Shown piece after piece: positions 1,043 to 48,641 of a stretch of 64,000 nt of DNA. The position numbers and the translations under genes were made by a program. The DNA comes from an archaeon (lineage in GTDB: Archaea; Aenigmatarchaeota; Aenigmatarchaeia; Aenigmatarchaeales; JACQIB01). Numbering within the stretch: position 1 is the first letter of the stretch; the number at the start of each line of letters is the position of its first letter. Location of the stretch: positions 331,130 through 395,129 of the forward strand of contig DATDSO010000004.1 in the NCBI GenBank assembly GCA_035291225.1. The letters are read 5' to 3'. The notes beneath the pieces were generated by a model. The model worked only from the letters and a program-made list of their open reading frames with translations, made no database searches and had not been told where the DNA came from.

Positions 1043-3541
1043 ATGCCCCGAATAACAAAACTGGAAATTCAAGGCTTCAAGTCCTTTGCAAAGAAAACGC
1101 AAATTCTCTTTCCAAGCAACTTCTCAATTATAGCTGGTCCGAACGGCTCTGGGAAAAGCAATGTTCTTGACGCAATTGTTTTTGTTTTAGGAAGGACAAG
1201 CGCAAAAAGCATCCGCGCGGACAAAATGCTGGAAGTGATTTTCAACGGCTCGAAAAAATCCAGCCCGGCGGAATTCGCAAGCGTGAAAATGCACTTCGAC
1301 AACAAGGACAAAAAATTTCCTGTAGAGGCGGATGAAATTGAAATCAACAGAAAAGTAAACAGAAAGGGAGTTTCAATTTACAAATTAAACAGCCAAACTG
1401 TAACGCGCGAAAAAATTCTTGAAGTTTTGCGCGCGGCAAACATAAATCCTGATGGGCACAACATAATTTTGCAGGGAGATGTGACAAATGTAATTGAGAT
1501 GTCTGATTTAGAACGCAGGGAAATTATAGACGATATTTCAGGAATTTCAGAATTCGAGGACAAGCGCGAAAAAGCAAACAAGGAATTAATGGTTGTTGAA
1601 GAAAGGCTTGACACGACTTCTGTGATTTTGGGCGAACGGGAAAACCAAATGAAAAAATTGCAGGAAGAGGCAAAATCCGCTATTGAATACAATGATTTAG
1701 CAAAAGAGCTTGATAAGCTACGCGCTTCTCTGGCTGCGCGCAGGCTCGGAGAGGCTGGCGAAGCAATGAAAATTCTTGAGGAGAAAATTTCCGAGAAAGA
1801 AAAAGAAACAAAAATTGCAGAGGCAGAAGTTTCCGCAATAGATTCTGAAATGGATAAAACCCAGAAAGAATTTTCCATGCTTACGGAAAAAACAATTTCG
1901 CGCGCCGGCGATGTTTCAATTATAAAGGAAGCGGAAAAAATCCGCGCGGAAATTTACGCAAAGAAAAATAAAATCGAGAGCGGTGAATTTGACATAAAAA
2001 GAATTGATGATGTGATTGCGCGGCTGAAGGATATTGCTGAAAGGGCTTTGACAGAAAGCGCGAGCGGGGCTGTGCAGGCTGTTTTGAAATTAAACCGCAC
2101 GGGGATTTATGGAACAATCGCCAAGCTCTCGAAAGTTCCGCAAAACTTCCAGACTGCAATTGAAGTTTGCGCAGGCCCGCACCTACACGATTTGGTTGTT
2201 TCTGATTCTTCTGTTGCAGTTGACTGCGTGAATTATTTGAAGCAAAACAGAGTGGGCCGCGCAACTTTTCTTCCGCTGGACAAAATTCACGAGCGCAATC
2301 CAGAGCATGTTAGAAGATTTTTGAAGCAGCCCGGAGTTGTCGGGCTTGCAATTGACTTAATCCAGTTTGACAAAAAATACTGGCACGCGTTCTCGCATAT
2401 TTTCGGGGACACGTTGGTTGTGGACAAAATTGAAACCGCGCGGCGCATTGGAATCGGCGAGGCGCGCATGGTTACTCTTGATGGAGATTTAGTTGAGCGC
2501 GGCGGCGCGATAATCGGCGGGTTTTACAGAAGCGACAAAAAAGTTTTTTCTGTGGCCGAAGATTTTTCAAAATATGAAAAAGAGAAAGAGAGAATTTTGC
2601 GCGAGAGTGAAAGCCTGCAAATTGAAATTGAAAAACTTTCCCGCGAGCTGGAAAAACTTTCCCAACAGGAACAAGCGGGCGGAAAAGAAGTTTCTGAAAT
2701 GCAGACAGCACGCGCTGATGCAGAGAAGGCTCTGCATGGATTGAGGCTGAGAAGGAAAGAGGCTTTTGAGCACAAGCTGAACTTGGGCGAGGAAATTAAC
2801 AAGCTGAAAATTTCCCGCGCGCGGTTTGAGGCAGAGCTGGAGAATATCAAAGCGGAATTTTCAAATTACAAGCAGGAGCTCGCCGAGTACAAAGAAATGA
2901 GCGCCGGAGAATTGAACACGAAAATTTTGAAATCAGTTTCGAAAATTCAGTCTCTCGGACCGATAAACCAGAAAGCAGTTGAGGAGTTCGAGGAAATAAA
3001 AAAAGGGTTTTCCGAGCTGAAGGAAAAATTTGATGTGCTTACAAAGGAAAGGGACAGGGTTGTGAAAATGATTCTGGAAATTGAATCTGGCAGAAAAGAA
3101 ACTTTCATGAAAACTTTCAATGCGATTTCCCAGCAGTTCAAAAATGTTTACAAGGACTTAACAAATGGCGAGGGATTTTTGAGCTTGGACAATGAGCTGA
3201 TTGATGAGGCGGGTTTGATAATTGAGGCAGTGCCTGCCGGAAAGAAAAAAATAAATATAGATTCAATGTCCGGCGGGGAAAAAACAATGGTCGCGCTTGC
3301 TTTTCTTTTTGCTTTGCAAAGATTCAGGCCGTCCCCATTCTATATTTTAGATGAGATTGATGCTGCTTTGGATAAGCCAAATGCCGCCCGCGTTGTTGGC
3401 CTGATAAAAAAATATTCGGACAATGCGCAGTTTATTGTTATCTCGCATAATGAAACAACAATTCAGGCTGCGGACTGCGTTTACGGAGTGAGCATGGACG
3501 AGGGAGAAAGCAAAATGGTTGGGATTAGGATGCCTGGGTGA
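1043..3541 (+). CDS. smc: Chromosome segregation protein SMC, compact form (832 aa)
   Basis: N-terminal Walker A GPNGSGKSN, central hinge (GIYGTIAKL...GRATFLPLDKI), C-terminal ABC signature SGGEKTMVALAFLFAL and Walker B FYILDEIDAALD. Confidence 0.9.
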   Translation: MPRITKLEIQGFKSFAKKTQILFPSNFSIIAGPNGSGKSNVLDAIVFVLGRTSAKSIRADKMLEVIFNGSKKSSPAEFASVKMHFDNKDKKFPVEADEIEINRKVNRKGVSIYKLNSQTVTREKILEVLRAANINPDGHNIILQGDVTNVIEMSDLERREIIDDISGISEFEDKREKANKELMVVEERLDTTSVILGERENQMKKLQEEAKSAIEYNDLAKELDKLRASLAARRLGEAGEAMKILEEKISEKEKETKIAEAEVSAIDSEMDKTQKEFSMLTEKTISRAGDVSIIKEAEKIRAEIYAKKNKIESGEFDIKRIDDVIARLKDIAERALTESASGAVQAVLKLNRTGIYGTIAKLSKVPQNFQTAIEVCAGPHLHDLVVSDSSVAVDCVNYLKQNRVGRATFLPLDKIHERNPEHVRRFLKQPGVVGLAIDLIQFDKKYWHAFSHIFGDTLVVDKIETARRIGIGEARMVTLDGDLVERGGAIIGGFYRSDKKVFSVAEDFSKYEKEKERILRESESLQIEIEKLSRELEKLSQQEQAGGKEVSEMQTARADAEKALHGLRLRRKEAFEHKLNLGEEINKLKISRARFEAELENIKAEFSNYKQELAEYKEMSAGELNTKILKSVSKIQSLGPINQKAVEEFEEIKKGFSELKEKFDVLTKERDRVVKMILEIESGRKETFMKTFNAISQQFKNVYKDLTNGEGFLSLDNELIDEAGLIIEAVPAGKKKINIDSMSGGEKTMVALAFLFALQRFRPSPFYILDEIDAALDKPNAARVVGLIKKYSDNAQFIVISHNETTIQAADCVYGVSMDEGESKMVGIRMPG

Positions 3542-34738: not shown

Positions 34739-36063
34739 AAACAGTTTTCCTTTGCGGTGGAATTGGCAAGCGCATGCATCCGATTGCAGAAGAAAAATTT
34801 CTGCTGAAGTTCGCTGGAAAAACTTTGCTGGAGCGCCATATTGATGCTGCGCGCTCAGCAGGCTTGAAAGATTTTGTGATTATTGGAAACCCGCATAATA
34901 TTGAAAAAATAAAGGATTTGTGTTCAAGACAAAATGGAGCAAATTTTGAATTTGCTGTGCAGAAAGAGCCAAAAGGAATGGCGGACGCAATGCTTTCCGC
35001 CAGCCACATTTTTGACGGAGAAGATTTCATTGTTGTTAACACAAATGATATTTTTGAGCCAAGCGCTTACAAAAATATTTTGGACGCTGCGAAAAATTCC
35101 GAGCACGATTCTCTGCTTACTGGATATGAAGTGCAAAAATATTTTCCCGGCGGTTATTTCCGCACAAACGAAAATGGAGAAATGATAGAGCTTGTTGAAA
35201 AGCCGGGCGCGGAAAATATGCCGAGCAATCTTCTGAATATTGTTTTGCACTTGCACAGAAACACAAAAAAGCACTTCAAGCATTGGGCGGAAACAAAATC
35301 TGAAAAGGATGATATTTATGAGCGGGCTCTGACTGAAATGGTGAAGAGCGGCGGAAAAATAAAAGTTGTTCCCTATTCAGGATTCTGGACTGCAATAAAA
35401 TATCCATGGCACATTCATGACGCGGCAGAATTTTTCATGAAAAATCAAGAGAGAAAAATTTCTCCTAATGCGAAAATTTCCGAGCGCGCGGTTGTTGATG
35501 GAAATGTTGTGATTGAAGATGGTGTTAGAATTTTTGAGAACGCTGTTGTGCGCGGACCGGCTTACATCGGAAAAAATACAATCATTGGAAACAACGCGCT
35601 CGTTTGGTCAGGCTCGCATATTGGAGACAACTCCGTTGTGGGATTCTCAACTGAGATAAAGCATTCATACATAGGAGACAACTGCTGGTTTCATTCAAAT
35701 TATGTTGGAGATTCAATTATACTGGACAACACAACTTTCGGAGCAGGAACAATAACAGCAAACCTGCGTTTTGACAATGGAAATGTAAAAGTCAATGTAA
35801 GAGGAGAAAGAGTTGACACAGGCACAGAAAAATTCGGCGCGATTTTCGGAGAGAACTGCAAAACAGGAATCAATTGCGTTATACTTCCGGGAATAAAAAT
35901 CGGGCCGAATAGTTTTGTCGGGCCGCATGTGCATTTGGACGAAGACCTAGAGCCAGACAAAATGATTTTCCTGAAGCAAAGCCATGTAGTAAAAGAAAAC
36001 ACAATAAAGCCCGGGAAAAGCTATGAGGAGTTCAGAAAAAAACTTCCGGATGTTGGGAAGTGA
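34735..36063 (+). CDS. Bifunctional sugar-1-phosphate nucleotidyltransferase / hexapeptide-repeat acetyltransferase (archaeal GlmU-like)
   Basis: N-terminal nucleotidyltransferase fold (LCGGIGKRM) and C-terminal left-handed beta-helix hexapeptide repeats. Confidence 0.8.
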   Translation: MKTVFLCGGIGKRMHPIAEEKFLLKFAGKTLLERHIDAARSAGLKDFVIIGNPHNIEKIKDLCSRQNGANFEFAVQKEPKGMADAMLSASHIFDGEDFIVVNTNDIFEPSAYKNILDAAKNSEHDSLLTGYEVQKYFPGGYFRTNENGEMIELVEKPGAENMPSNLLNIVLHLHRNTKKHFKHWAETKSEKDDIYERALTEMVKSGGKIKVVPYSGFWTAIKYPWHIHDAAEFFMKNQERKISPNAKISERAVVDGNVVIEDGVRIFENAVVRGPAYIGKNTIIGNNALVWSGSHIGDNSVVGFSTEIKHSYIGDNCWFHSNYVGDSIILDNTTFGAGTITANLRFDNGNVKVNVRGERVDTGTEKFGAIFGENCKTGINCVILPGIKIGPNSFVGPHVHLDEDLEPDKMIFLKQSHVVKENTIKPGKSYEEFRKKLPDVGK

Positions 36064-36067
36064 TTCT

Positions 36068-37252
36068 ATGCGCCTCTACGAATTTGAAAGCAAGCAAATG
36101 CTGAAAAAAAATGGAATAAAAATTCCGCAGTCAGTTCTTTCCACTTCTGCGATTTCTGAAATCCCGTTCAACAGCGAAATTGCTGTGAAAGCCCAAGTGC
36201 TTTCTAATGGAAGGGGAAAAGCTGGCGGAGTGAAAGTTTTTTCCAGCCCAGAGGAAGCGAAAAATTTTGCGAACTCTTTGCTCGGCTCGGTTTTGCTGAA
36301 AGAAAAAGTGAAGTCTGTTTTGATTGAAAAGAAAATTAAAACAAAAAACGAATTCTACATAAGCTTTGCTTATGACACTGACACGCAGCTGCCGGTTTTG
36401 GTTTTGAGCAAATCCGGCGGAGTGGATGTCGCCGAGCTAACAAAAAACAGCTGGCTTGCGAAAATTCCCATTGACCCTTTGCTTGGGCTGAAAGAGTGGC
36501 AGGCGAGAGATGCTGCTGTTGACGCAGGATTCGCAAGCGAGCTGATTCCAAAAATTTCTGATTTTGCCTTGAGGCTTTACAATGTTTTCTCATCAGAGGA
36601 CTGCAGGCTTTTGGAAATAAATCCGCTGAGCCTGACAGAAGAAGGAGAGCTTGTTGCAGTCGGCGCGCTTATAGATTTGGACAACGATGCGGGCTATAAG
36701 CACAAGGAAAGAAATTATCCGCCGCGCATGCCCGGAGTTGGACGCGAACTTACAGACGGAGAAATGCTTGTGAAAAAATCTGACGAGGCAGATTACCGCG
36801 GCTCAATAAAATTTATTGAGCTCGGCGGAGAAATTGGATTTCTCGCAGCAGGTGGGGGCGGGAGCATGGCTGCGATGGACGCTTTAATTATTGCCGGAGG
36901 AAATCCCGCGAACTATGCGGAATTTTCCGGAGACCCGCCGAAAGAAAAAGTCTACGCGCTCGCGAAAGCAATTCTCTCGCAGAAAAATTTGGCCGGCTTG
37001 TGGATTGTCGGGGCAATTGCAAATTTCACGCGCATGGACCAGACAATGCAGGGAGTTGTTGAAGCCCTGAGAGAAGCAAAGCCAAAATATCCGATTGTTG
37101 TTCGGCGCTCGGGCCCGTATGAAAAAGAAGGATTGCAAATGCTGAAAGATGTTGGGGTCGAGCTCGGGCTTGACATTGAAGTGCACGGCTCTGAAGTTTC
37201 AATGACAGCGACTGCGAAGACAATTGCGGAGAAAGTTAAAAAACAAAAATGA
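36068..37252 (+). CDS. Succinyl-CoA synthetase beta-like ATP-grasp subunit (possible citryl-CoA synthetase / ACL beta)
   Basis: ATP-grasp N-terminus (QVLSNGRGKAGGVKV) and CoA-ligase C-terminus (GFLAAGGGGSMAAMD...GGNPANYAEF); start set at first Met after upstream stop. Confidence 0.75.
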   Translation: MRLYEFESKQMLKKNGIKIPQSVLSTSAISEIPFNSEIAVKAQVLSNGRGKAGGVKVFSSPEEAKNFANSLLGSVLLKEKVKSVLIEKKIKTKNEFYISFAYDTDTQLPVLVLSKSGGVDVAELTKNSWLAKIPIDPLLGLKEWQARDAAVDAGFASELIPKISDFALRLYNVFSSEDCRLLEINPLSLTEEGELVAVGALIDLDNDAGYKHKERNYPPRMPGVGRELTDGEMLVKKSDEADYRGSIKFIELGGEIGFLAAGGGGSMAAMDALIIAGGNPANYAEFSGDPPKEKVYALAKAILSQKNLAGLWIVGAIANFTRMDQTMQGVVEALREAKPKYPIVVRRSGPYEKEGLQMLKDVGVELGLDIEVHGSEVSMTATAKTIAEKVKKQK

Positions 37253-38163
37253 TTTTTATGAGCATTCTAATAAACAAAGAAACAAAAGTTTTAATTCAGG
37301 GAATTACTGGACGCAGCGGGCAGGTTGCGCTCCACACAATGAAAGAATACGGGACAAAAGTTTTGGCAGGTGTGACTCCGGGGAAGGGTGGGCAGGAAGT
37401 TGAAGGGGTTCCGGTTTTCAATTCAGTTCACGAGGCTTTGAAAAAATTTCCGGAAATAAATTGCTCAGCAATTTATGTTCCGCCCGCAGCTTGCCGCGAG
37501 GCAGTGATTGAGGCGGTTTCAAATGGAATTAAATTGGTGAATGTAATTACAGAAGGAGTTGCGATTCAGGACACGGTTCAAATGCTGCGCTACGCAAAAC
37601 TTTATGGAGCGCGAATTGTCGGGCCATCTTCAATTGGAATTTTAACTCCGAAGCAATGCAAGATTGGAGTTCTCGGCGGCTCTGCTGTGGACACTGACAA
37701 AATTTATTTTCCCGGAAGCATTGGAGTGATTTCGAAAAGCGGAGGCATGACAAATGAAACTGCATGGGTTGTGCGTTCAGCTGGATTGGGCCAGTCAACT
37801 GTTGTTGGAATTGGCGGGGATGTGATTTTGGGAACTGATTTTGTGGATTTGCTGAAAATGTTTGAGGCAGACAAGGAAACAAAAGGGGTTGTAATTTTCG
37901 GAGAGCCTGGCGGGACTTATGAGGACAAGATTGCCGAGGCTGTCAGGAAAAAAGAATTCACAAAACCGATTGCTGCTTTTATTGCAGGAGTTTTCGCCGA
38001 GAGGCTTCCGCACGGAACGCAGTTCGGCCACGCGGGCGCGCTGATTGAAAATGGAAGGGGCTCGCCTGTGCAGAAAATTAAAATTTTGAAAGAGGCTGGG
38101 GTTTTAATTGCGGAAACGCATGATATGTTGGGGGAGGTTATAAAAAGAGCTATTGAAAATTAA
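37249..38163 (+). CDS. Succinyl-CoA synthetase alpha-like CoA-binding subunit
   Basis: KVLIQGITGRSGQ CoA-binding start and phosphohistidine loop GTQFGHAGA. Confidence 0.8.
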   Translation: MIFMSILINKETKVLIQGITGRSGQVALHTMKEYGTKVLAGVTPGKGGQEVEGVPVFNSVHEALKKFPEINCSAIYVPPAACREAVIEAVSNGIKLVNVITEGVAIQDTVQMLRYAKLYGARIVGPSSIGILTPKQCKIGVLGGSAVDTDKIYFPGSIGVISKSGGMTNETAWVVRSAGLGQSTVVGIGGDVILGTDFVDLLKMFEADKETKGVVIFGEPGGTYEDKIAEAVRKKEFTKPIAAFIAGVFAERLPHGTQFGHAGALIENGRGSPVQKIKILKEAGVLIAETHDMLGEVIKRAIEN

Positions 38164-38169
38164 TTAAAG

Positions 38170-38268
38170 GGCTCGCAGGTTTTCGTAAACTCAAACCCGC
38201 TCGCGACTAATGTGGAATAAAAATATTTTCACACATTAGTTAGCGAGGCTCATGGGTTTACCCTGAGC
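38170..38268. other. Structured intergenic region: GC-rich repeat copy 2 plus two stem-loops
   Basis: ggctcgcaggttttcgtaaactcaaacccgctcgc (38170-38204); inverted repeats actaatgtg/cacattagt (38207-38240) and gctcatggg/accctgagc (38248-38268). Confidence 0.5.
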
Positions 38269-38296
38269 CGAGCAAATCAAAATAAGTTGTGATAAC

Positions 38297-39025
38297 ATGA
38301 AATGGAAAACAAAAATTTCAGATGCGAACGATGAAGGCACAAAGATTAGAGGAAAAGCTCTTGAAGAGCTTGTGGGAAAAATTTCCTATGCTGAAATGGT
38401 TTTTCTTTTGCTGCGCGGAAAAATGCCAACGCCTGAAGAAAGCAAAATGATGGAAGCGCTTTTGGTTTGCGTGGCAGAGCACAGCATTGCTGTTCCTTCT
38501 ATAACTGCTGCGCGCATAGCAGCGAGCGGCTCGGGAAGTTTTGTGCAGGGAGTTGCCGCAGGAATTTTGGGAATAGGCGAGCACCACGGAGGCGCAGGCG
38601 AGGGCTGCGCAAAAGTTCTGCAGGAAAATTTGGGAAAGCCTGCTGCTGAAGTTGTCGCAAAATTTTCCGCGAGAAAAGAAAGGCTGCCGGGCTTTGGGCA
38701 CAAAATTTATACAACAGACCCGCGCACGAAAAAACTTTTTTCAATTGCAAAAGAGCTTGGGATTTTTGGGAGCTACTGCAATTTTGCGCTTGAGCTCGAA
38801 AAAGAATTGGAGCGCGCGGGTGGAAAAAAACTCTGCCTTAATGTTGACGGCGCGATTGCCGCAATAATTTCTGAAATGGGATTCCACTGGAAAAGCGGCC
38901 GCGCGTTTTTTGTGATTCCGCGCACAGCAGGAATTTCCGCGCATGTTATTGAGGAACTGATGGAGGAGAAGCCGTTTTCAAAAAGATTGGAAGAGGGGGA
39001 ATATGAATATTTGGGGGAGAAATAA
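38297..39025 (+). CDS. Citrate synthase-fold small protein (citryl-CoA lyase-like)
   Basis: GEHHGGAGEG (cf. GPLHGGANE) and PGFGHKIYTTDPR (citrate synthase signature); 242 aa, like short stand-alone citryl-CoA lyases. Confidence 0.65.
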   Translation: MKWKTKISDANDEGTKIRGKALEELVGKISYAEMVFLLLRGKMPTPEESKMMEALLVCVAEHSIAVPSITAARIAASGSGSFVQGVAAGILGIGEHHGGAGEGCAKVLQENLGKPAAEVVAKFSARKERLPGFGHKIYTTDPRTKKLFSIAKELGIFGSYCNFALELEKELERAGGKKLCLNVDGAIAAIISEMGFHWKSGRAFFVIPRTAGISAHVIEELMEEKPFSKRLEEGEYEYLGEK

Positions 39026-40527: not shown

Positions 40528-41277
40528 TTATTCATAATCTTTATGCAGAACATCTCGAATCTTCTGAGCAATTTTTTCTCCAACTCCGTCAACTTCTCTG
40601 AGCTCTTCTTTCGAAGCCATGAAAATTCTCTCCGGTGTCCCGAATTTTTTCAAAAGCGCGCGGGCGCGTGTGTTGGAAATCTCTGGTAGGCCAGCAATTA
40701 AAAATTCCTGCATCTGCTTGAGCCCACGCTCTTTTTTTTCTCCGCGAATAGCGAGCTCGCGGCCGCTGTCAAACTGCTCGCGCCGCGCAAGCCAGAAAAT
40801 CATTCCTGCCGTTTCCTTCGGGTCGCGCGTCCATAAAATTGGAATGGAAAAATCCAGCGCAACAGAAGCGAGCGCGCCCCTCAGAGCGTTTGGCTGTATG
40901 CGCTCGTAAAAATTATTTCCTTCAATCAGCAGCACCGGCTTTTCAAAGTTTTGCTTCAGCTCGCTCAGCTGCTTGAAAAGCCTTTGGTCCATTATGCTTG
41001 AAACCAAATCAGGAGAAGTTTTGCGCTCAACTGCAACGCGGTCTGAGCAGAGATAATCCGCAACATTCAGCATTTTTTCTTTCACAACACATTCGAACTC
41101 TGCTAGCGCCTGCACCACTCCGGAGTTCTGCTCGCGCGTGTCCACAAAAATCAGCGGCTTGGCTTTCTCAGGCTTTTTTTTCATACTCTCGCGCAGGAAA
41201 TCGAAATAGTCAATTTTTTCTTCTTTGGGCATGGAAGAAAATATCTCAGCGGGTTTAAATCTCTTTGAAATTTCCAA
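40528..41277 (-). CDS. XPF/ERCC4-type nuclease domain protein with C-terminal HhH2 (Hef nuclease part)
   Basis: ERCC4 block IFVDTRE...VADYLCSDRVAVERKTSPDLVSS and HhH2 GLPEIS...KFGTPERIFMASKEELREVDGVGEKIA. Confidence 0.8.
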   Translation of the reverse strand: MEISKRFKPAEIFSSMPKEEKIDYFDFLRESMKKKPEKAKPLIFVDTREQNSGVVQALAEFECVVKEKMLNVADYLCSDRVAVERKTSPDLVSSIMDQRLFKQLSELKQNFEKPVLLIEGNNFYERIQPNALRGALASVALDFSIPILWTRDPKETAGMIFWLARREQFDSGRELAIRGEKKERGLKQMQEFLIAGLPEISNTRARALLKKFGTPERIFMASKEELREVDGVGEKIAQKIRDVLHKDYE

Positions 41278-42781
41278 TTGTTTTCTGCGCCTGCATACCC
41301 TTCAAAATTTCTTTCATTTTTTTCTCCTTTCTGCTGGCAGAATAAAAATTCGCCTCGTCGCGCGTGTCTTTTGTAATCAGGAAAATTATTTTCCCCAATT
41401 TTGTTCTTCCAACTCGCCCGCGCCTTTGTATTGTTCTAATCTCGCTTGCAACAGGCTCGTAGAAAATTGCGATGTCCGCGCTCGCTATATGCAGGCCCTC
41501 CTCACCTATCGGGCTCGTGATTAAACAATTGTAAACTCCTGCCTCAAAATCTTTCAGCACATCAATCTGCTCTTTCTGGCTCAGGCCTTTTTCACCAGAC
41601 TGGCCGATTAAAGAAATAGGCGAGCAAATATTTTTTAAAATTTCAAGCAGGCGGGAAATATTTTCGCGGTAGTGAGAAAATATAATTATTTTTACATTCT
41701 TATTCTCTGAAAATTCTTTGGAAACAATTTCTTTCAGAGCGGCGATTTTCGGGTGCTCCTCATCCGCGAGCGCGAGCTCTTCAACATTCCTAACAGCGTT
41801 CTGGAAAGGCGCTGACTGCGAAAGCCTAATGCTAGCCTTGTCGGATTTTTTCCTCAGCTCGTCAAAATATTTTTTTGTCGCACCCACGCTTTGGGTTTCT
41901 ATAAGCTCGGCCGCATGCCAGACTTTAAGCGCTTCTGCTACAATAGAGATTATTTGGAAGTTCATCGGGTTGCTATGCAAATTTCTCTGTGCGCGGCTTT
42001 GGGCTAAAAGCAAATCCTTTTTGCTGAACGCATAAACTTTGTATTTTTTCAGCTTTTCCAAAAGCTCTCGCAGACACAGTCTGAGTGAGCTTTGGGTGTA
42101 TTTCATCTTTTGTGGAAGCTCTACGCGCACTTGAACTAAATTTTTCTCTTCAACATATTTTTCAACATCTGGATCGTTTTCGCTTCTTATTTCAACGGCA
42201 GTTGCAAAAAGATTTTCGCAGATTTCTTTTATGCGCGCCTCATCTGAACCTGGGCTTGCGGTGAGTCCGAGAATTCTTCCGCGCTTAGCCTGCTGATTGT
42301 AAACTTTGCATACAAATGGGTAGGCATAGCCTTTCACAGCTTTATGCACCTCATCAACAACCAGAAGAGAAAAGTTTTCCAAATTTAATTTTCCCGTTTT
42401 CAAATCATTTTGTATTGTCTGAGGAGTTGCAGAAATAATTTTTGCTTTCAGGTAAATTTCCTTTCTAATCTCAGGGGAGATTTTTCCTGTAAGCAAAACT
42501 ATTTCCTCTTCAGGAATTTCCATGCTTTCAGAAAAGCTTCTCATGTGCTGTTCGCATAATGGGCGCGTGGGCGCAACAATTAAAATCTTTGAATCTGGAA
42601 ACTTCTCCAAGCGCTGCGCGGCAAGCATAATAGCAACAGCAGTTTTTCCCAAGCCTGTTGGCAGAACCACGAGAGTATTATTTGCGCAAGCAGTCCGCAA
42701 AATATTTACCTGATATTCTCGCGCTTCTATTGCATTTGGTTTTACCATGGGAGAAATAAAAAATGGCATAAAATGAATCAA
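41255..42781 (-). CDS. Hef-type DEAH/FANCM-like helicase (helicase part of Hef)
   Basis: Motif I LPTGLGKT, motif II VVDEVH, motif VI QRRGRVGR; 3' end overlaps the nuclease gene by 23 nt in another frame. Confidence 0.8.
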   Translation of the reverse strand: MIHFMPFFISPMVKPNAIEAREYQVNILRTACANNTLVVLPTGLGKTAVAIMLAAQRLEKFPDSKILIVAPTRPLCEQHMRSFSESMEIPEEEIVLLTGKISPEIRKEIYLKAKIISATPQTIQNDLKTGKLNLENFSLLVVDEVHKAVKGYAYPFVCKVYNQQAKRGRILGLTASPGSDEARIKEICENLFATAVEIRSENDPDVEKYVEEKNLVQVRVELPQKMKYTQSSLRLCLRELLEKLKKYKVYAFSKKDLLLAQSRAQRNLHSNPMNFQIISIVAEALKVWHAAELIETQSVGATKKYFDELRKKSDKASIRLSQSAPFQNAVRNVEELALADEEHPKIAALKEIVSKEFSENKNVKIIIFSHYRENISRLLEILKNICSPISLIGQSGEKGLSQKEQIDVLKDFEAGVYNCLITSPIGEEGLHIASADIAIFYEPVASEIRTIQRRGRVGRTKLGKIIFLITKDTRDEANFYSASRKEKKMKEILKGMQAQKTIGNFKEI

Positions 42782-42811: not shown

Positions 42812-43720
42812 CTATCTGTACTTATGATATTTTTTCCACCAACCCGGATCTATAAAAAACAGAGAGCCAGCCACAAAAACAAAGAGAATCACCAGCCATA
42901 TTGGGATTATTTTTTCAGGATTTAGTCCCAAAATAAACCTGAAAAAAATCGGGGCAGCCAGCAAAATAATGAAAAACAGCTCTTCGCCTCCAGACCAGAA
43001 GTATTTTTTATTTTCCGTAGGCAGACCAGAAATTTTTCTTGCGCGCTCCCCAATTTCAAAAATATCTAATCTAAAAATTTCCAACAAGACAACAGCTGCT
43101 TTGAATATAAAATATAGCCCCATCCAAAGCTTTATCATTGATATATTCCCAGATCCATAATATGTCACAGGCATTACAAAGTACAAGGAGAAAATCAGCC
43201 AGTCATAGGATTTGATTTTTCTCCCGGAAGAGCCCAAAATATATTGAATCAAGAAAAGAAAAATGAGCGGAACAGACTTAGTATACTGGTAGATGACTAC
43301 AGAAAAAAGAAAAATTATCAGAGGTATATTGCCTGAAAAATATTTCTGTTCGGCCTCCACGGCATACATATTTACAATCAGAAAAAGCATTGCTAGTATA
43401 AAGAAGACGAATATTTTGTCTATCATGCTGAAAATTAAAATTAGCGACAGCAAAAATGCAAGAACAATCTTAAGAGAAAACGAATTTAATATTTTGTACA
43501 GGAGCTTTCCGGTTAAGCCCATACTGATTGCAACAACAGCAGCTGAAATGAATTCTGTCAAAACTATTATTTTCAGCGTGAAAGGTCCAAAAGCCTGCTC
43601 CAGAGACTGCTGCGCAGGCGTATATAAAAACAAAGCCGCAAAAAGAACAGAAATCAAGAGATTAAAAACAGGATTTAGGAAGACTTTTTCTAATCTCGAG
43701 TTTTGCTTTGAAATTAGCAT
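42812..43720 (-). CDS. Polytopic hypothetical membrane protein (302 aa)
   Basis: At least 8 hydrophobic helices; no family motif. Confidence 0.5.
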   Translation of the reverse strand: MLISKQNSRLEKVFLNPVFNLLISVLFAALFLYTPAQQSLEQAFGPFTLKIIVLTEFISAAVVAISMGLTGKLLYKILNSFSLKIVLAFLLSLILIFSMIDKIFVFFILAMLFLIVNMYAVEAEQKYFSGNIPLIIFLFSVVIYQYTKSVPLIFLFLIQYILGSSGRKIKSYDWLIFSLYFVMPVTYYGSGNISMIKLWMGLYFIFKAAVVLLEIFRLDIFEIGERARKISGLPTENKKYFWSGGEELFFIILLAAPIFFRFILGLNPEKIIPIWLVILFVFVAGSLFFIDPGWWKKYHKYR

Positions 43721-43730
43721 ACTTTTCTAC

Positions 43731-44864
43731 CTAGCTAAACAAAATTCTGAAAAATTCTCTTATTGCTTCAGATAGCTTTTCAATAAAACCCTTTTCTTTT
43801 TTATCCTCAATTTTTTCGTTCGCGCAGAGCACAGCTTCTCTGCTTGGCTCTGCTTTTAGAACATCACCGCTGCCCGGCATTACAGTGATATATGTTTCGT
43901 AATCCCTGTACCCCGGCGCTTTGCACACAATTTTGTAATCACCATATTTCAGCTCTTGTAATTTTACCGAACGATTGCCCTTGAAAGTTCCATTGAGATA
44001 AATCAGAGAGTTCAGCTGGGAGTTTACCTGAACTTCTGCGCTTTCCTCTATCATAACAAGGCCGCTTGAAAAAACATTTGGCGAGAGTGTGCTGTAGATT
44101 TCGATAAAATATCTTCCGGTTTCCGAAAATGTTGCAGAATTCTCAAAGTTGCCTTGGGAATCGGTGACAACATTTCTTTTGTAAAACTGCACGCCCGCTT
44201 TCTTGGAAAGCTCAACAAATTCTAACTTTGTATTTACAGATGTGTTGCCGGAAAATTTCACACTTGTACCCACCATCGCCCTGCGCGGGGTTATATTCAA
44301 ATTCAAATTGTAAGAGCTTATATCAAAGCCAACCGGAGAAAGTTGTATTGTCTGCCTTTTTGTCATGATATCGTACAGGTCGTCTGTGTGGTCCAAACCA
44401 AGCGCATGCCCAAGCTCGTGCATGGAAGTAATTTTCATTTCCCTATGGGAAAACTCTTTCGCAACATCTCCTGATCTCATGTAAAATTTTCCCAAGCACG
44501 CAAGCCTTATTTTTGCTGATACAAACCTTTTGTTGGGAACAAGAACAATATTTGTTATTCCACCCACTTCCTCGCTGACATTTTCCAAATCCCTTACCCA
44601 TTGGACTGTTACATCGCCTCCATTTTCAACCTCCCTGAAATTTGGCTGAAAGGAAAGCCGGCCATTTCCTCCGTTTTTCCAGTATTCTATTGATTTGTAG
44701 AAATCATCTACATAAGCAGGATCGCATTCCGGAGGAAATGACCTGTTTATGAAAAAAGATAAAGTGGGATGGTCCCACGGCTGCTCGAGCTCCTTTGGGT
44801 AAGTGTATGCAAATGCGGCCGAAGAAATGATTATAAAACAAAGCGCCGCAAACAGATATTTCAT
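43731..44864 (-). CDS. Secreted metzincin-type zinc metalloprotease
   Basis: Signal peptide MKYLFAALCFIIISSAAFA; HELGHALGLDH (HExxHxxGxxH) followed by DIM Met-turn candidate. Confidence 0.7.
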   Translation of the reverse strand: MKYLFAALCFIIISSAAFAYTYPKELEQPWDHPTLSFFINRSFPPECDPAYVDDFYKSIEYWKNGGNGRLSFQPNFREVENGGDVTVQWVRDLENVSEEVGGITNIVLVPNKRFVSAKIRLACLGKFYMRSGDVAKEFSHREMKITSMHELGHALGLDHTDDLYDIMTKRQTIQLSPVGFDISSYNLNLNITPRRAMVGTSVKFSGNTSVNTKLEFVELSKKAGVQFYKRNVVTDSQGNFENSATFSETGRYFIEIYSTLSPNVFSSGLVMIEESAEVQVNSQLNSLIYLNGTFKGNRSVKLQELKYGDYKIVCKAPGYRDYETYITVMPGSGDVLKAEPSREAVLCANEKIEDKKEKGFIEKLSEAIREFFRILFS

Positions 44865-46435: not shown

Positions 46436-48574
46436 CTAAATATTGTCCTTTGATATCTGTTCCTTAACTTCTTTCGCAACAGCCTCACCCAAAATTAAAC
46501 TCAAAGTTTCCACTGGAGTTTTTTTCAAGCTCAAAATTGTTTTCATTCCAGCATTCCACAATCTGCGCGCTCTCACTCTTCCAATTCCTTTCAGCCGCAC
46601 AAGCGGGAGCAGCTCTTCCTTTATTCCATATTTCAATCGCGTGCGCAGTTTTCTTATCTCAGCCATGGATTCTCTTTTTCCCAAAAGCAAAGCAAGCTCT
46701 CCGCAAGAGTAAAGCAGCCAGTCTGCGATATCAACTTTTCCATGCAGCTCTCCGGGGGAGATTTTGAATTTTTCATTCATTTCATTTTCTCCCAATTCAG
46801 AAAGCCAGCCCTCGAACATTGCTGCGGTTTTTATTTCGGCGAGAAAAAATTCATATTCAGAATCCCATTCATCAATTGGCAAAGCCATCAGCTCATTTTC
46901 TTTTCGCGCAAGCAAATCCACATAGTCAGCAGTTTCTGCCTGCCGAACATTTAATTTCTGCCCGAGCTCGCGTGCGCTGGAAATTAAATGCAAAAGCCCG
47001 AAAGCATTTGCATTGTACTGCGCTAGGCTGCCCGCAAATTTATGCGCGGTTTCCGGATCCAAATAAAGTTCAGCAACGCGCTTTCCAATTCTTGTTGGCC
47101 GCAACTCTGTTCCAATTCTAATAATAAATTTCCACTCAGCGAGCTCGTTCAAGATTTTTTCAATTCTCTCCCCTAGCGCTGCTTCATTTGGAAATTGAAA
47201 TCCATAAAAAGTTTGCGCGAAAAATTCTTCAAGCTCTTTTTCTGTTTTTACAAGCTCGCTTCCTATAAGCGCGAGCGCGTGAGTTCTCAGAACGGGCTCG
47301 GCAGAAAGCTTGCTATAAATTTCCTCCGTTTCTCCGAGAATAAATTTTTCATACATTTCTTTTGCTTCGCGTGGGTCCTTGGCAATTAGAATCGATTCTC
47401 CCTCTTTATCAAACTGTGGCCTGCCAGCGCGGCCGCGCATCTGCTCATATTCTAAAACCGGAATGTAAACATAGCCATAGTCTGCGTAGTATCTTTTGGA
47501 ATCTCTAATTACAACTCTGAAAGCCGGTAGGTTTACTCCGGCAGCAAGCGTGGGCGTGGAGGAAATAATTTTTATTAATTTTTCCTTGAAAGCATTTTCA
47601 ATTTCCTTTCTCTGTTTTGCAACCAAGCCTGCGTGGTGGAAGGCTGTCCCATCTTTCACGCAGCCTGCCAGGCGTTTGCACTGCTTTGTCGGGCTGTCCA
47701 AGGTTCTTTCAATTTTTTCTGAAATTTCAAAAAGTTTCTCTCTCTCTTCAGCAGACAAGTGAGGCTTAACAACTTTTCCGCACTTCTCTGCAATCGCTTC
47801 TGCGCTGCGGCGCGTGGAGGAAAAAATCAGCGCCTGCTTTTTTATTTCAGCAGTTTGCCCGGCAATTCCAAGCTCACCTCCGTCCGCAAGAAACCCGTCC
47901 TTCTCTAAAAATTTTACAGCAGTCCCATCGTAAATTCCTTCATGCAGTTTCACTGGCCGCCACTCGCTCTGCACAAGCTTTCCGTTTATCCAGCTCGCCA
48001 AGTCTTTTGCGTTTTTTATTGTTGCGCTCAGAAAAAGAAAATTTATTTTCGGATTCAGCTGGCGCAGTTTTGTAATTGTAATTTCCAAAGTCGGCCCGCG
48101 GTCTGCGTCATTCAGCAAATGAACTTCATCAATAACAACAACTCCGACAGAAAAAACCCAGCTGGCTTTATGCCTCAAAAGGGAATCCATTTTCTCGCTT
48201 GTGAGAACAATCAAATCATAGTCTGCGAGCCAGCTATCAGAGGAGTCCAAATCGCCTGTGCTGATTGCAACTCTCAGGCCGAACTTGGAATATTTCTCCT
48301 TGAAGCTTTCGTATTTTTCCGAAGCTAATGCTCTGAGAGGAACAATGTAAATCGCTTTCGTTTTGTTCTCCAAAACATTTTTTACCATCATTAATTCGGC
48401 AATCAAGGTTTTTCCGCTTGCTGTTGGTGCGGAAATTATAAAAGAATTCTTCAAATCAAGCAAGCCAGCTTCAATTGCTTTCTCCTGAACAGGATTCAGC
48501 TTTTCTATTCCGGATTCTTTGAGTGAAGAAAAAAGTTTTTCTGGGAGTTTTCCTTCAAGTCTAGAAATTTGCAT
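46436..48574 (-). CDS. hel308: Hel308/Hjm-type Ski2-like DNA helicase
   Basis: Motif I APTASGKT, motif II DEVH, later helicase motifs, C-terminal HhH region; start set at internal Met. Confidence 0.85.
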   Translation of the reverse strand: MQISRLEGKLPEKLFSSLKESGIEKLNPVQEKAIEAGLLDLKNSFIISAPTASGKTLIAELMMVKNVLENKTKAIYIVPLRALASEKYESFKEKYSKFGLRVAISTGDLDSSDSWLADYDLIVLTSEKMDSLLRHKASWVFSVGVVVIDEVHLLNDADRGPTLEITITKLRQLNPKINFLFLSATIKNAKDLASWINGKLVQSEWRPVKLHEGIYDGTAVKFLEKDGFLADGGELGIAGQTAEIKKQALIFSSTRRSAEAIAEKCGKVVKPHLSAEEREKLFEISEKIERTLDSPTKQCKRLAGCVKDGTAFHHAGLVAKQRKEIENAFKEKLIKIISSTPTLAAGVNLPAFRVVIRDSKRYYADYGYVYIPVLEYEQMRGRAGRPQFDKEGESILIAKDPREAKEMYEKFILGETEEIYSKLSAEPVLRTHALALIGSELVKTEKELEEFFAQTFYGFQFPNEAALGERIEKILNELAEWKFIIRIGTELRPTRIGKRVAELYLDPETAHKFAGSLAQYNANAFGLLHLISSARELGQKLNVRQAETADYVDLLARKENELMALPIDEWDSEYEFFLAEIKTAAMFEGWLSELGENEMNEKFKISPGELHGKVDIADWLLYSCGELALLLGKRESMAEIRKLRTRLKYGIKEELLPLVRLKGIGRVRARRLWNAGMKTILSLKKTPVETLSLILGEAVAKEVKEQISKDNI

Positions 48575-48641
48575 GCAAATTACTCGTGCCGCAGGTATTA
48601 AAATCAATGCCTTTATAAATTTTCTTTCCTATAAGTTTTTA

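Follow-up and report, generated by a model that had tools for sequence, protein, structure and literature searches.

Hef encoded as two separate genes, a helicase and a nuclease, in Aenigmatarchaeota and Nanoarchaeota-type archaea

Hef is usually one polypeptide in euryarchaea, with a helicase joined to a nuclease, and in crenarchaea only the nuclease is found. A preliminary description of contig DATDSO010000004.1, from an archaeon of the Aenigmatarchaeota, started from this background, which we judge to be right, and pointed to a locus where Hef appears as two genes instead: a Hef/FANCM-type helicase and an ERCC4 nuclease with an HhH2 domain. Both lie head-to-tail on the minus strand of a 64,000-nt stretch (hereafter the window; all coordinates are positions in it). 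Is such a pair a natural split, a programmed frameshift, a recent disruption, or a sequencing error? These were the four options originally offered, and of them the natural split is supported and the other three are rejected. The two-gene Hef is very probably a stable, natural, clade-wide arrangement in which the helicase (497 aa here) and the nuclease (234 aa) are made as separate proteins. A single Hef polypeptide is not what the window encodes, as the helicase stop codon, a different frame, and a spacer of 22 nt lie between the two halves, and relatives have the same layout.

The first step is to establish where the two genes start and end. The ORF listing of the window (open reading frames) contains both on the minus strand, at 41255–42781 (508 aa) and 40528–41277 (249 aa), each from a TTG start, and Pfam recovers their domains. 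In a three-frame translation of the junction, the helicase frame closes as ...GNFKEI-TAA, with the stop at 41257–41255. The nuclease lies in the +1 frame relative to the helicase, and its frame opens 23 codons 5' of the first ATG (41232, MPKEEK...), covering the last 14 helicase codons. That the frames differ is thus as first described, and so is the 23-nt overlap if the TTG at 41277 is taken as the start. With the ATG, the overlap gives way to a non-coding spacer of 22 nt, within the 45 nt that separate TTG from ATG. We place the nuclease start at this ATG because its closest homologues (P0001 and P0002, 234 aa each) are called from the equivalent position, because the Joint Genome Institute (JGI) gene call on an identical contig (L004) starts there, because the TTG is not conserved (TTA in relative L002), and because the spacer is poorly conserved (64% nucleotide identity with relative L003, compared with 86% in the nuclease coding region). 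The 23-nt overlap is, on these sequence comparisons, an artefact of start-codon choice and not a biological feature. The helicase frame is likewise open upstream to the TTG at 42781, but its start is most likely the ATG at 42748. From there the product is 100% identical to a public protein (P0121), and an exact-sequence lookup of the 508-aa TTG-start form found no match among public proteins.

The identities first given to the two halves are borne out. The helicase has the Pfam domains DEAD, ResIII, RNA_helicase_helical (aa 236–321 of the 508-aa ORF), and Helicase_C, arranged as two RecA lobes separated by a thumb-like helical insertion, and it contains the motifs PTGLGKT, DEVH, TASP, and QRRGRVGR. 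In the helicase alignment, the GxGKT, DExH, TASPG, and QRxGRxxR columns are invariant. This is the superfamily 2 (SF2) core of a Hef, with motifs I–VI and the thumb-like insertion between the RecA lobes. Because the alignment spans the helicase domain of Pyrococcus furiosus Hef from end to end (1WP9; query 5–480 versus chain 6–494, E 1e-106), the window helicase is, as far as homology can tell, a whole Hef helicase module and no fragment. Human FANCM is its second-best structure match, and its AlphaFold2 (AF2) model has a mean predicted local distance difference test (pLDDT) value of 85. The nuclease has an ERCC4 domain with the catalytic signature and a tandem HhH2, as a Hef nuclease does. 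Its catalytic residues D31, R33, E34, D59, E69-R70-K71, and D75 are all present, in columns invariant in 23 homologues, and the GDXnERKX3D signature reads VADY...VERKTSPD, with A replacing G. Over its full length it matches the XPF of Aeropyrum pernix (2BGW; E 2.6e-37, 131.8 bits), and it also matches the P. furiosus Hef nuclease (1J22, E 2e-30) and the Hef HhH2 domain (1X2I, E 2e-14). Thaumarchaeal XPFs share 37–38% identity with it. Both the helicase and the nuclease look enzymatically competent from these residues.

The position of the break is informative. The window helicase ends in AQKTIGNFKEI, which holds a motif that resembles the box known as PIP (for PCNA-interacting peptide). Anchored on its aromatic residue, the tail consensus is Q(-6), [L/I](-3), [D/E](-1), and F(0), then 0–3 residues. 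The core of this motif, [LIVMF]xx[FYW], is present in 117/120 helicase homologues within their last 16 aa, and in 28% of control windows drawn from the same proteins; for the full form, Qxx[h]xx[a], the values are 54% of the 120 and 0.1% of control windows. In the AF2 model, residues 490–497, which follow a long helix (463–487), have pLDDT below 50, and the tail is thus predicted to be flexible. Fused Hefs have the equivalent motif in their linker, 15–25 residues past the final helicase helix (for example, QKTLDGF, QPRLEEF, QSSLKSF, QKGLNDF, and QPPLERF). Since the motif stands both at the C-terminus of split helicases and in the linkers of fused Hefs, the split point falls, by this alignment of motifs, in the flexible linker between the domains, immediately past the PIP box. 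The helicase then has the architecture of taHef, the helicase-only Hef of Thermoplasma acidophilum, with a helicase core alone that terminates in Qxx[I/L]xx[F]. Through its PIP box, taHef binds PCNA with a dissociation constant (KD) of ~1 uM (Rohleder et al. 2016, PMC4838364), and the I505R/F508S form has lost this binding (PMC4838364). A PIP-like motif after the helicase domain was also reported for P. furiosus Hef (pfHef) and for haloarchaeal Hefs (PMC4838364). By analogy with taHef, the tail of the window helicase probably binds PCNA as well.

A break of this kind could also come from a sequencing or assembly error in a normally fused gene, or from a very recent frameshift that has inactivated it and left an incipient pseudogene. 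One 1-nt change would merge the two frames, and the sequence is from a metagenome-assembled genome (MAG), a kind of source prone to indel errors. Nevertheless, a JGI contig from a separate assembly (L004, 1874 bp) matches the window exactly along its whole length, with every base at the junction the same. Relatives from other sources also carry the split. L003, from a different ENA sample (nuclease identity, 96%; spacer, 22 nt), has the stop at the same position; L002, from a different SRA run in Logan (85%; 17 nt), has the same two-gene layout with a shifted stop; and an NCBI Aenigmatarchaeota MAG (L001/L005) is more distant (63%; 29 nt). In all three, the gene order is unchanged, and a stop codon is followed by a short spacer and then by a new ATG. 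The close homologues of both halves are without exception stand-alone proteins: the 120 best helicase homologues, of 483–555 aa, are all without an ERCC4 domain (120/120), and those among them that are named belong to Aenigmatarchaeota or Nanoarchaeota, while 69/69 of the best nuclease homologues, of 182–297 aa, stand alone. With 15–40% sequence divergence among the public assemblies, an artefact common to all of them is implausible, and the conserved tail motif sits exactly at the helicase C-terminus. The ratio of nonsynonymous to synonymous substitution rates (dN/dS) is 0.04 versus L003 and 0.09 versus L002 for the nuclease, and 0.07 and 0.08, respectively, for the helicase, at dS 0.8–2.0 for both genes. 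Both genes have, by this measure, long been under strong purifying selection while split. A recent disruption was rejected on the range of these ratios (0.04–0.09) and on the number of species-level genomes (~45) that have the split in common. That the two-gene layout is an error or a fresh lesion is extremely improbable.

The extent of the split was assessed with a nuclease profile built from an 11-sequence alignment, which was run against one genome per GTDB species. This gave 80 loci, which were classified by tblastn and ORF tracing in the flank available (up to 4 kb). All loci of the Aenigmatarchaeota/Nanoarchaeota type were split, in those ~45 species-level genomes. The two genes are adjacent in 13 species-representative loci, with gaps of -16 to +176 nt, and are separated by 0.4–2.7 kb in 9 more. 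The order is reversed in 4, with the helicase 2–3 kb downstream of the nuclease, and the remaining ~18 of the ~45 loci have no helicase within the available flank. The genes that lie between the halves in the 9 gapped loci are mutually unrelated; we looked there for a conserved third gene and found none, with one 138–152-aa family common to two loci only. Fused ORFs of 714–850 aa were found in Methanobacteria, Nanohaloarchaea, Bathyarchaeia, Altiarchaeota, Hydrothermarchaeota, Hadarchaeota, and Asgard archaea. Three loci, L060 and L072 (Hadarchaeota) and L044 (Bathyarchaeia), have a nuclease ORF without an upstream helicase, though relatives in their lineages carry fused Hef. The upstream sequence there comes to 3.4 kb for L072, 4 kb for L044, and only 335 nt for L060, and these may be independent splits, losses, or assembly artefacts. 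When 1.84 billion cluster representatives were searched with HMMER, 4680 relatives of the nuclease emerged. Of the 150 best, 51 stand alone, 480 residues or more precede the nuclease in 56, and the other 43 are intermediate or truncated. The best-scoring relative in this search (P0241, 781 aa; not in the window) is a stand-alone nuclease with a LAGLIDADG-type intein inside the catalytic ERK motif (...VAIERKS, the intein, then TTNDF...). Another, P0245 (1262 aa; not in the window), is a fused Hef whose helicase lobe 2 holds an intein, and inteins are probable in several further representatives of 1077–1293 aa.

The same loci bear on whether the two frames could be joined in expression. A programmed +1 ribosomal frameshift or transcriptional slippage near the helicase end would make a fused Hef, in addition to the two proteins or in their place. 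The open nuclease frame that overlaps the helicase end in the +1 frame would allow for this, and the summed length of the two proteins, 731 aa, fits that of short fused Hefs (714–734 aa). We sought slippery sites and homopolymers at the junction that could join the frames, and none leads into the nuclease frame. The overlap region has no homopolymer above A4 and no known +1 shift site. An A AAT TTC heptamer would shift reading by -1, and that frame closes after 30 codons, short of the nuclease, and an A7 run further upstream precedes a nuclease-frame stop and is not conserved in L003. The spacer evolves in a non-coding manner. Among relatives, six of 16 adjacent pairs have a nuclease frame offset of 0, four have +1, and six have +2, with stops in between, and elsewhere the genes have other genes between them, a reversed order, or no linkage. 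Recoding needs a conserved frame relationship and a shift site, so a programmed-frameshift gene was rejected as a candidate on these offsets, on the spread of gaps between adjacent genes, and on an unconserved junction sequence. We consider a frameshifted product scarcely credible, and Hef in the window would be encoded by two independent genes that give two separate proteins with no recoding.

How the downstream gene is expressed may differ across the clade. A TATA-like box precedes the nuclease ATG in the window, and ATATAAA, TTTATAT, or TTTTAAAA is found at the same distance from the ATG in L003, L002, L005, and L014, despite the stop codon moving. In a custom positional scan of the 55 window ORFs of at least 150 aa, TATA-like hexamers peak at -30 to -25 from gene ATGs (17 starts in 6 nt, compared with ~2 per 3-nt bin elsewhere), and, judging from that peak, leaderless transcripts seem common in this genome. 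Shine–Dalgarno (SD)-like motifs peak at -16 to -10 in a separate set of genes, so the gene starts of the window form two classes. For the nuclease, its own TATA box within the helicase 3' end and a leaderless mRNA are most likely, although the box is a short AT-rich match in a genome of 42% GC, which counts against this assignment. Other split-clade pairs have gaps of 0–4 nt or overlaps together with SD-like motifs, an arrangement that suggests translational coupling. Either an own promoter or translational coupling yields separate proteins.

The history of the split was followed with neighbour-joining (NJ) trees only. In the nuclease tree from BLOSUM distances, the split and stand-alone sequences of the lineage form one derived clade. 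Helicases are on average 48% identical inside the split group and 42% identical between the split and fused groups. Fused Hef is spread over Euryarchaeota, TACK, Asgard, and other DPANN archaea; parsimony on this distribution favours a fused ancestor, and we infer that such an ancestor was followed by fission in the Aenigmatarchaeota/Nanoarchaeota-type lineage. Several tree results weigh against that direction or temper it. In the nuclease tree from Kimura distances, the thaumarchaeal XPF outgroup joins inside the split group, and the root can fall there. Bootstrap values for the strict split grouping of nucleases are 11/100 rooted and 22/100 unrooted, and a clean bipartition of split and fused helicases is recovered in 59/100 (485 columns; 24 split and 29 fused sequences). 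One split/fused transition is likely, with a direction that the NJ trees do not settle. The opposite course would make the split ancestral, with a helicase adjacent to a short XPF-type nuclease, and gene fusion would later have produced the fused Hef seen in other archaea and in eukaryotes. With the Kimura root in the split group, the fused nucleases are indeed derived, and the window nuclease scores equally well against the short A. pernix XPF and against Hef fragments. On the other side are the taxonomic breadth of fused Hef (Euryarchaeota; TACK, as Bathyarchaeia and one Nitrososphaerota MAG; Asgard; and DPANN, as Nanohaloarchaea and Altiarchaeota), the derived position of the split group in the BLOSUM tree, the length of the outgroup branch, and weak bootstrap support. 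An ancestral split is consequently unlikely in our estimation, and fission of a fused gene is the course that we prefer.

If the two products are separate, do they still work together? In the arrangement that we propose, the helicase would act as a PCNA-tethered fork remodeller whose exposed Qxx[I/L]xxF tail probably brings it to stalled forks via PCNA. The nuclease, expressed independently and with its ERCC4 catalytic residues and HhH2 kept, would be an XPF-like structure-specific endonuclease, probably homodimeric, like the isolated Hef nuclease or short XPF. The two may cooperate functionally at forks. For fused Hef, it has been argued that a disordered region joins the domains and that these cannot occupy the fork junction simultaneously (PMC5717133), a restriction that fits separable modules. 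What would bring the nuclease to the fork is less apparent: we sought a PIP-like tail on the window nuclease, and it is absent from the C-terminus, which reads HKDYE, so that no recruitment element was recognised there, a point against the proposed arrangement. Another subclade of stand-alone nucleases (a subset of P0021–P0062, Woesearchaeota/Nanoarchaeota-like) has a strongly conserved ...KYEKSILED* end, missing in the window nuclease. It recalls the thaumarchaeal ...QKTLHD* end and may serve to bind a partner. At its other end, the window nuclease carries an N-terminal extension, in which a motif is conserved across its subclade, IDYFDFLRESMKKK, which reads MPKEEKIDYFDFLRESMKKK in the window and ..DDFLKPI[VI]ESM[KQ][RK]R... 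in P0006–P0015. The motif is missing from other split-clade nucleases, and the extension could be a docking element.

It is possible, although we lean against it, that cooperation has been lost altogether, leaving a fork remodeller of the taHef kind and, independent of it, an XPF-like flap endonuclease, with their adjacency only a remnant of fission. The loci with no helicase in the flank, the 4 with reversed order, and the 9 with unrelated intervening genes would all be expected to some degree under such a loss. Micrarchaeota-type nucleases stand alone, and no conserved docking motif common to the whole clade was found. However, gaps of at most 176 nt have been kept in 13 loci, in the window, and in its close relatives, with helicase identity down to ~44%. 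In addition, the pairs with the shortest gaps or overlaps and SD-like motifs have a spacing typical of co-translated partners, and the nuclease N-terminal extension is conserved in the subclade of the window. We keep functional cooperation between helicase and nuclease as the working proposal. More speculatively, and with little probability in our estimation, the two-gene Hef may be a surviving pre-fusion state of XPF/MUS81/FANCM, a PCNA-tethered helicase beside a short XPF, or its products may come together again on a single PCNA ring, giving a modular Hef of two subunits with regulable stoichiometry.

The coordinates of the Hef pair and of other features of the window are given below.

Features of the 64,000-nt window, with the Hef pair first and other genes after it
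Feature	Position	Strand	Details
Hef-type SF2 helicase gene	41255..42748	-	497 aa; Pfam, 1WP9 alignment, identity to P0121, AF2 model
PIP-box-like motif	41264..41287	-	Q488-K-T-I491-G-N-F494-K495, then E-I-stop; motif statistics, AF2, fused linkers
TATA-like box ATTTAAA	41254..41260	-	-28..-22 from nuclease ATG; overlaps helicase stop TAA (41255-41257)
Non-coding spacer, helicase stop to nuclease ATG	41233..41254	-	22 nt; L002 17 nt, L005 29 nt
Stand-alone ERCC4 nuclease + HhH2 gene	40528..41232	-	234 aa; Pfam, PDB matches, catalytic residues, dN/dS
Nuclease N-terminal extension	41143-41232	-	residues 1-30
ERCC4 domain	40798-41145	-	~aa 30-145; Pfam E 3e-33
HhH2 domain	40540-40692	-	~aa 181-231; Pfam HHH_2/HHH_5
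Multi-pass membrane protein	42812-43720		302 aa; no Pfam match; adjoins M10/PEGA protein
Matrixin (M10) zinc-protease domain + PEGA protein	43731-44864	-	secreted-looking; HELGHALGLDH
Hel308/Hjm-like helicase	46436-48607	-	DEAD, Helicase_C, HTH_61, archaeal helicase domain 4; 3.7 kb from Hef pair
ATP-grasp_2 + Citrate_bind	36023-37252	+	
CoA_binding + Ligase_CoA	37249-38163	+	
Citrate synthase C-terminal part only	38297-39025	+	242 aa
SMC-family protein	1043-3541	+	832 aa; SMC_N residues 4-821, hinge 353-469

None of the immediate neighbours of the Hef pair has a link to DNA repair; they are a DUF218 protein, an unknown convergent gene, the membrane protein, and the M10/PEGA protease. The Hel308/Hjm-like gene encodes another stalled-fork helicase. 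Three consecutive genes on the plus strand (36023–39025) resemble an ATP-citrate lyase in pieces, or a set of citryl-CoA synthetase and citryl-CoA lyase, which would be of note in a small DPANN-type genome. Typical SMC proteins have ~1150–1200 aa, and the one in the window is short by comparison. The window is clearly archaeal, with aIF5B, FttA/aCPSF1, and SMC encoded; tRNA and Rfam scans over its whole length gave no matches.

Full-text searches of the literature did not turn up any account of a split Hef pair in DPANN archaea. Public annotations name the two genes generically, as "DEAD/DEAH box helicase" and "ERCC4 domain-containing protein". Because annotation pipelines use such names, surveys that look for fused Hef will under-count Hef in DPANN genomes. 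The split adds a third, clade-wide state to the picture of fused Hef and short XPF, one in which both halves are kept as separate genes. A break exactly after the PIP box supports a view of the Hef helicase and nuclease as separable modules, each of which may reach the fork independently, and through it the helicase-only Thermoplasma Hef becomes part of a wider pattern. The clade also offers a natural experiment on what covalent linkage gives to the function of the Hef/FANCM family. No major concept is changed by it, and the two-gene Hef is a modest variant of a known system.

How the pair stands among known systems can be seen from four comparisons. It is like the fused Hefs of P. furiosus, Thermococcus kodakarensis, and Haloferax volcanii in its helicase with a thumb-like insertion, its nuclease, its HhH2, its catalytic residues, and its PIP-like motif, but it consists of two polypeptides, and the linker has been cut to a ~10-aa helicase tail and ~25 aa at the nuclease N-terminus. 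With taHef it shares a Hef helicase core of ~500 aa and a single-aromatic PIP box at the end (502–508 in taHef; Q488–F494 in the window); taHef was described without a nuclease domain (PMC4838364), whereas the window has an ERCC4 and HhH2 gene 22 nt downstream. The 234-aa nuclease, for its part, is like the short XPFs of A. pernix (2BGW) and Saccharolobus solfataricus, which have ERCC4 and HhH2 only (~215–235 aa). Thermoproteota and Nitrososphaerota with a short XPF are not known to have a Hef helicase, and their XPF depends on PCNA through its C-terminal tail. PCNA has been identified as an essential cofactor (PMC2836553). In contrast to the short XPFs of Thermoproteota and Nitrososphaerota, the window nuclease has an adjoining helicase gene and no recognisable C-terminal PIP-like tail. 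Lastly, the pair is like the split genes of DPANN archaea, such as those of Nanoarchaeum equitans, in that an archaeon with a reduced genome encodes a multidomain, information-processing protein in two genes with the break at a domain boundary. Unlike those split genes, the two halves of Hef are usually still neighbours, and their break is common to a large clade instead of belonging to one genome.

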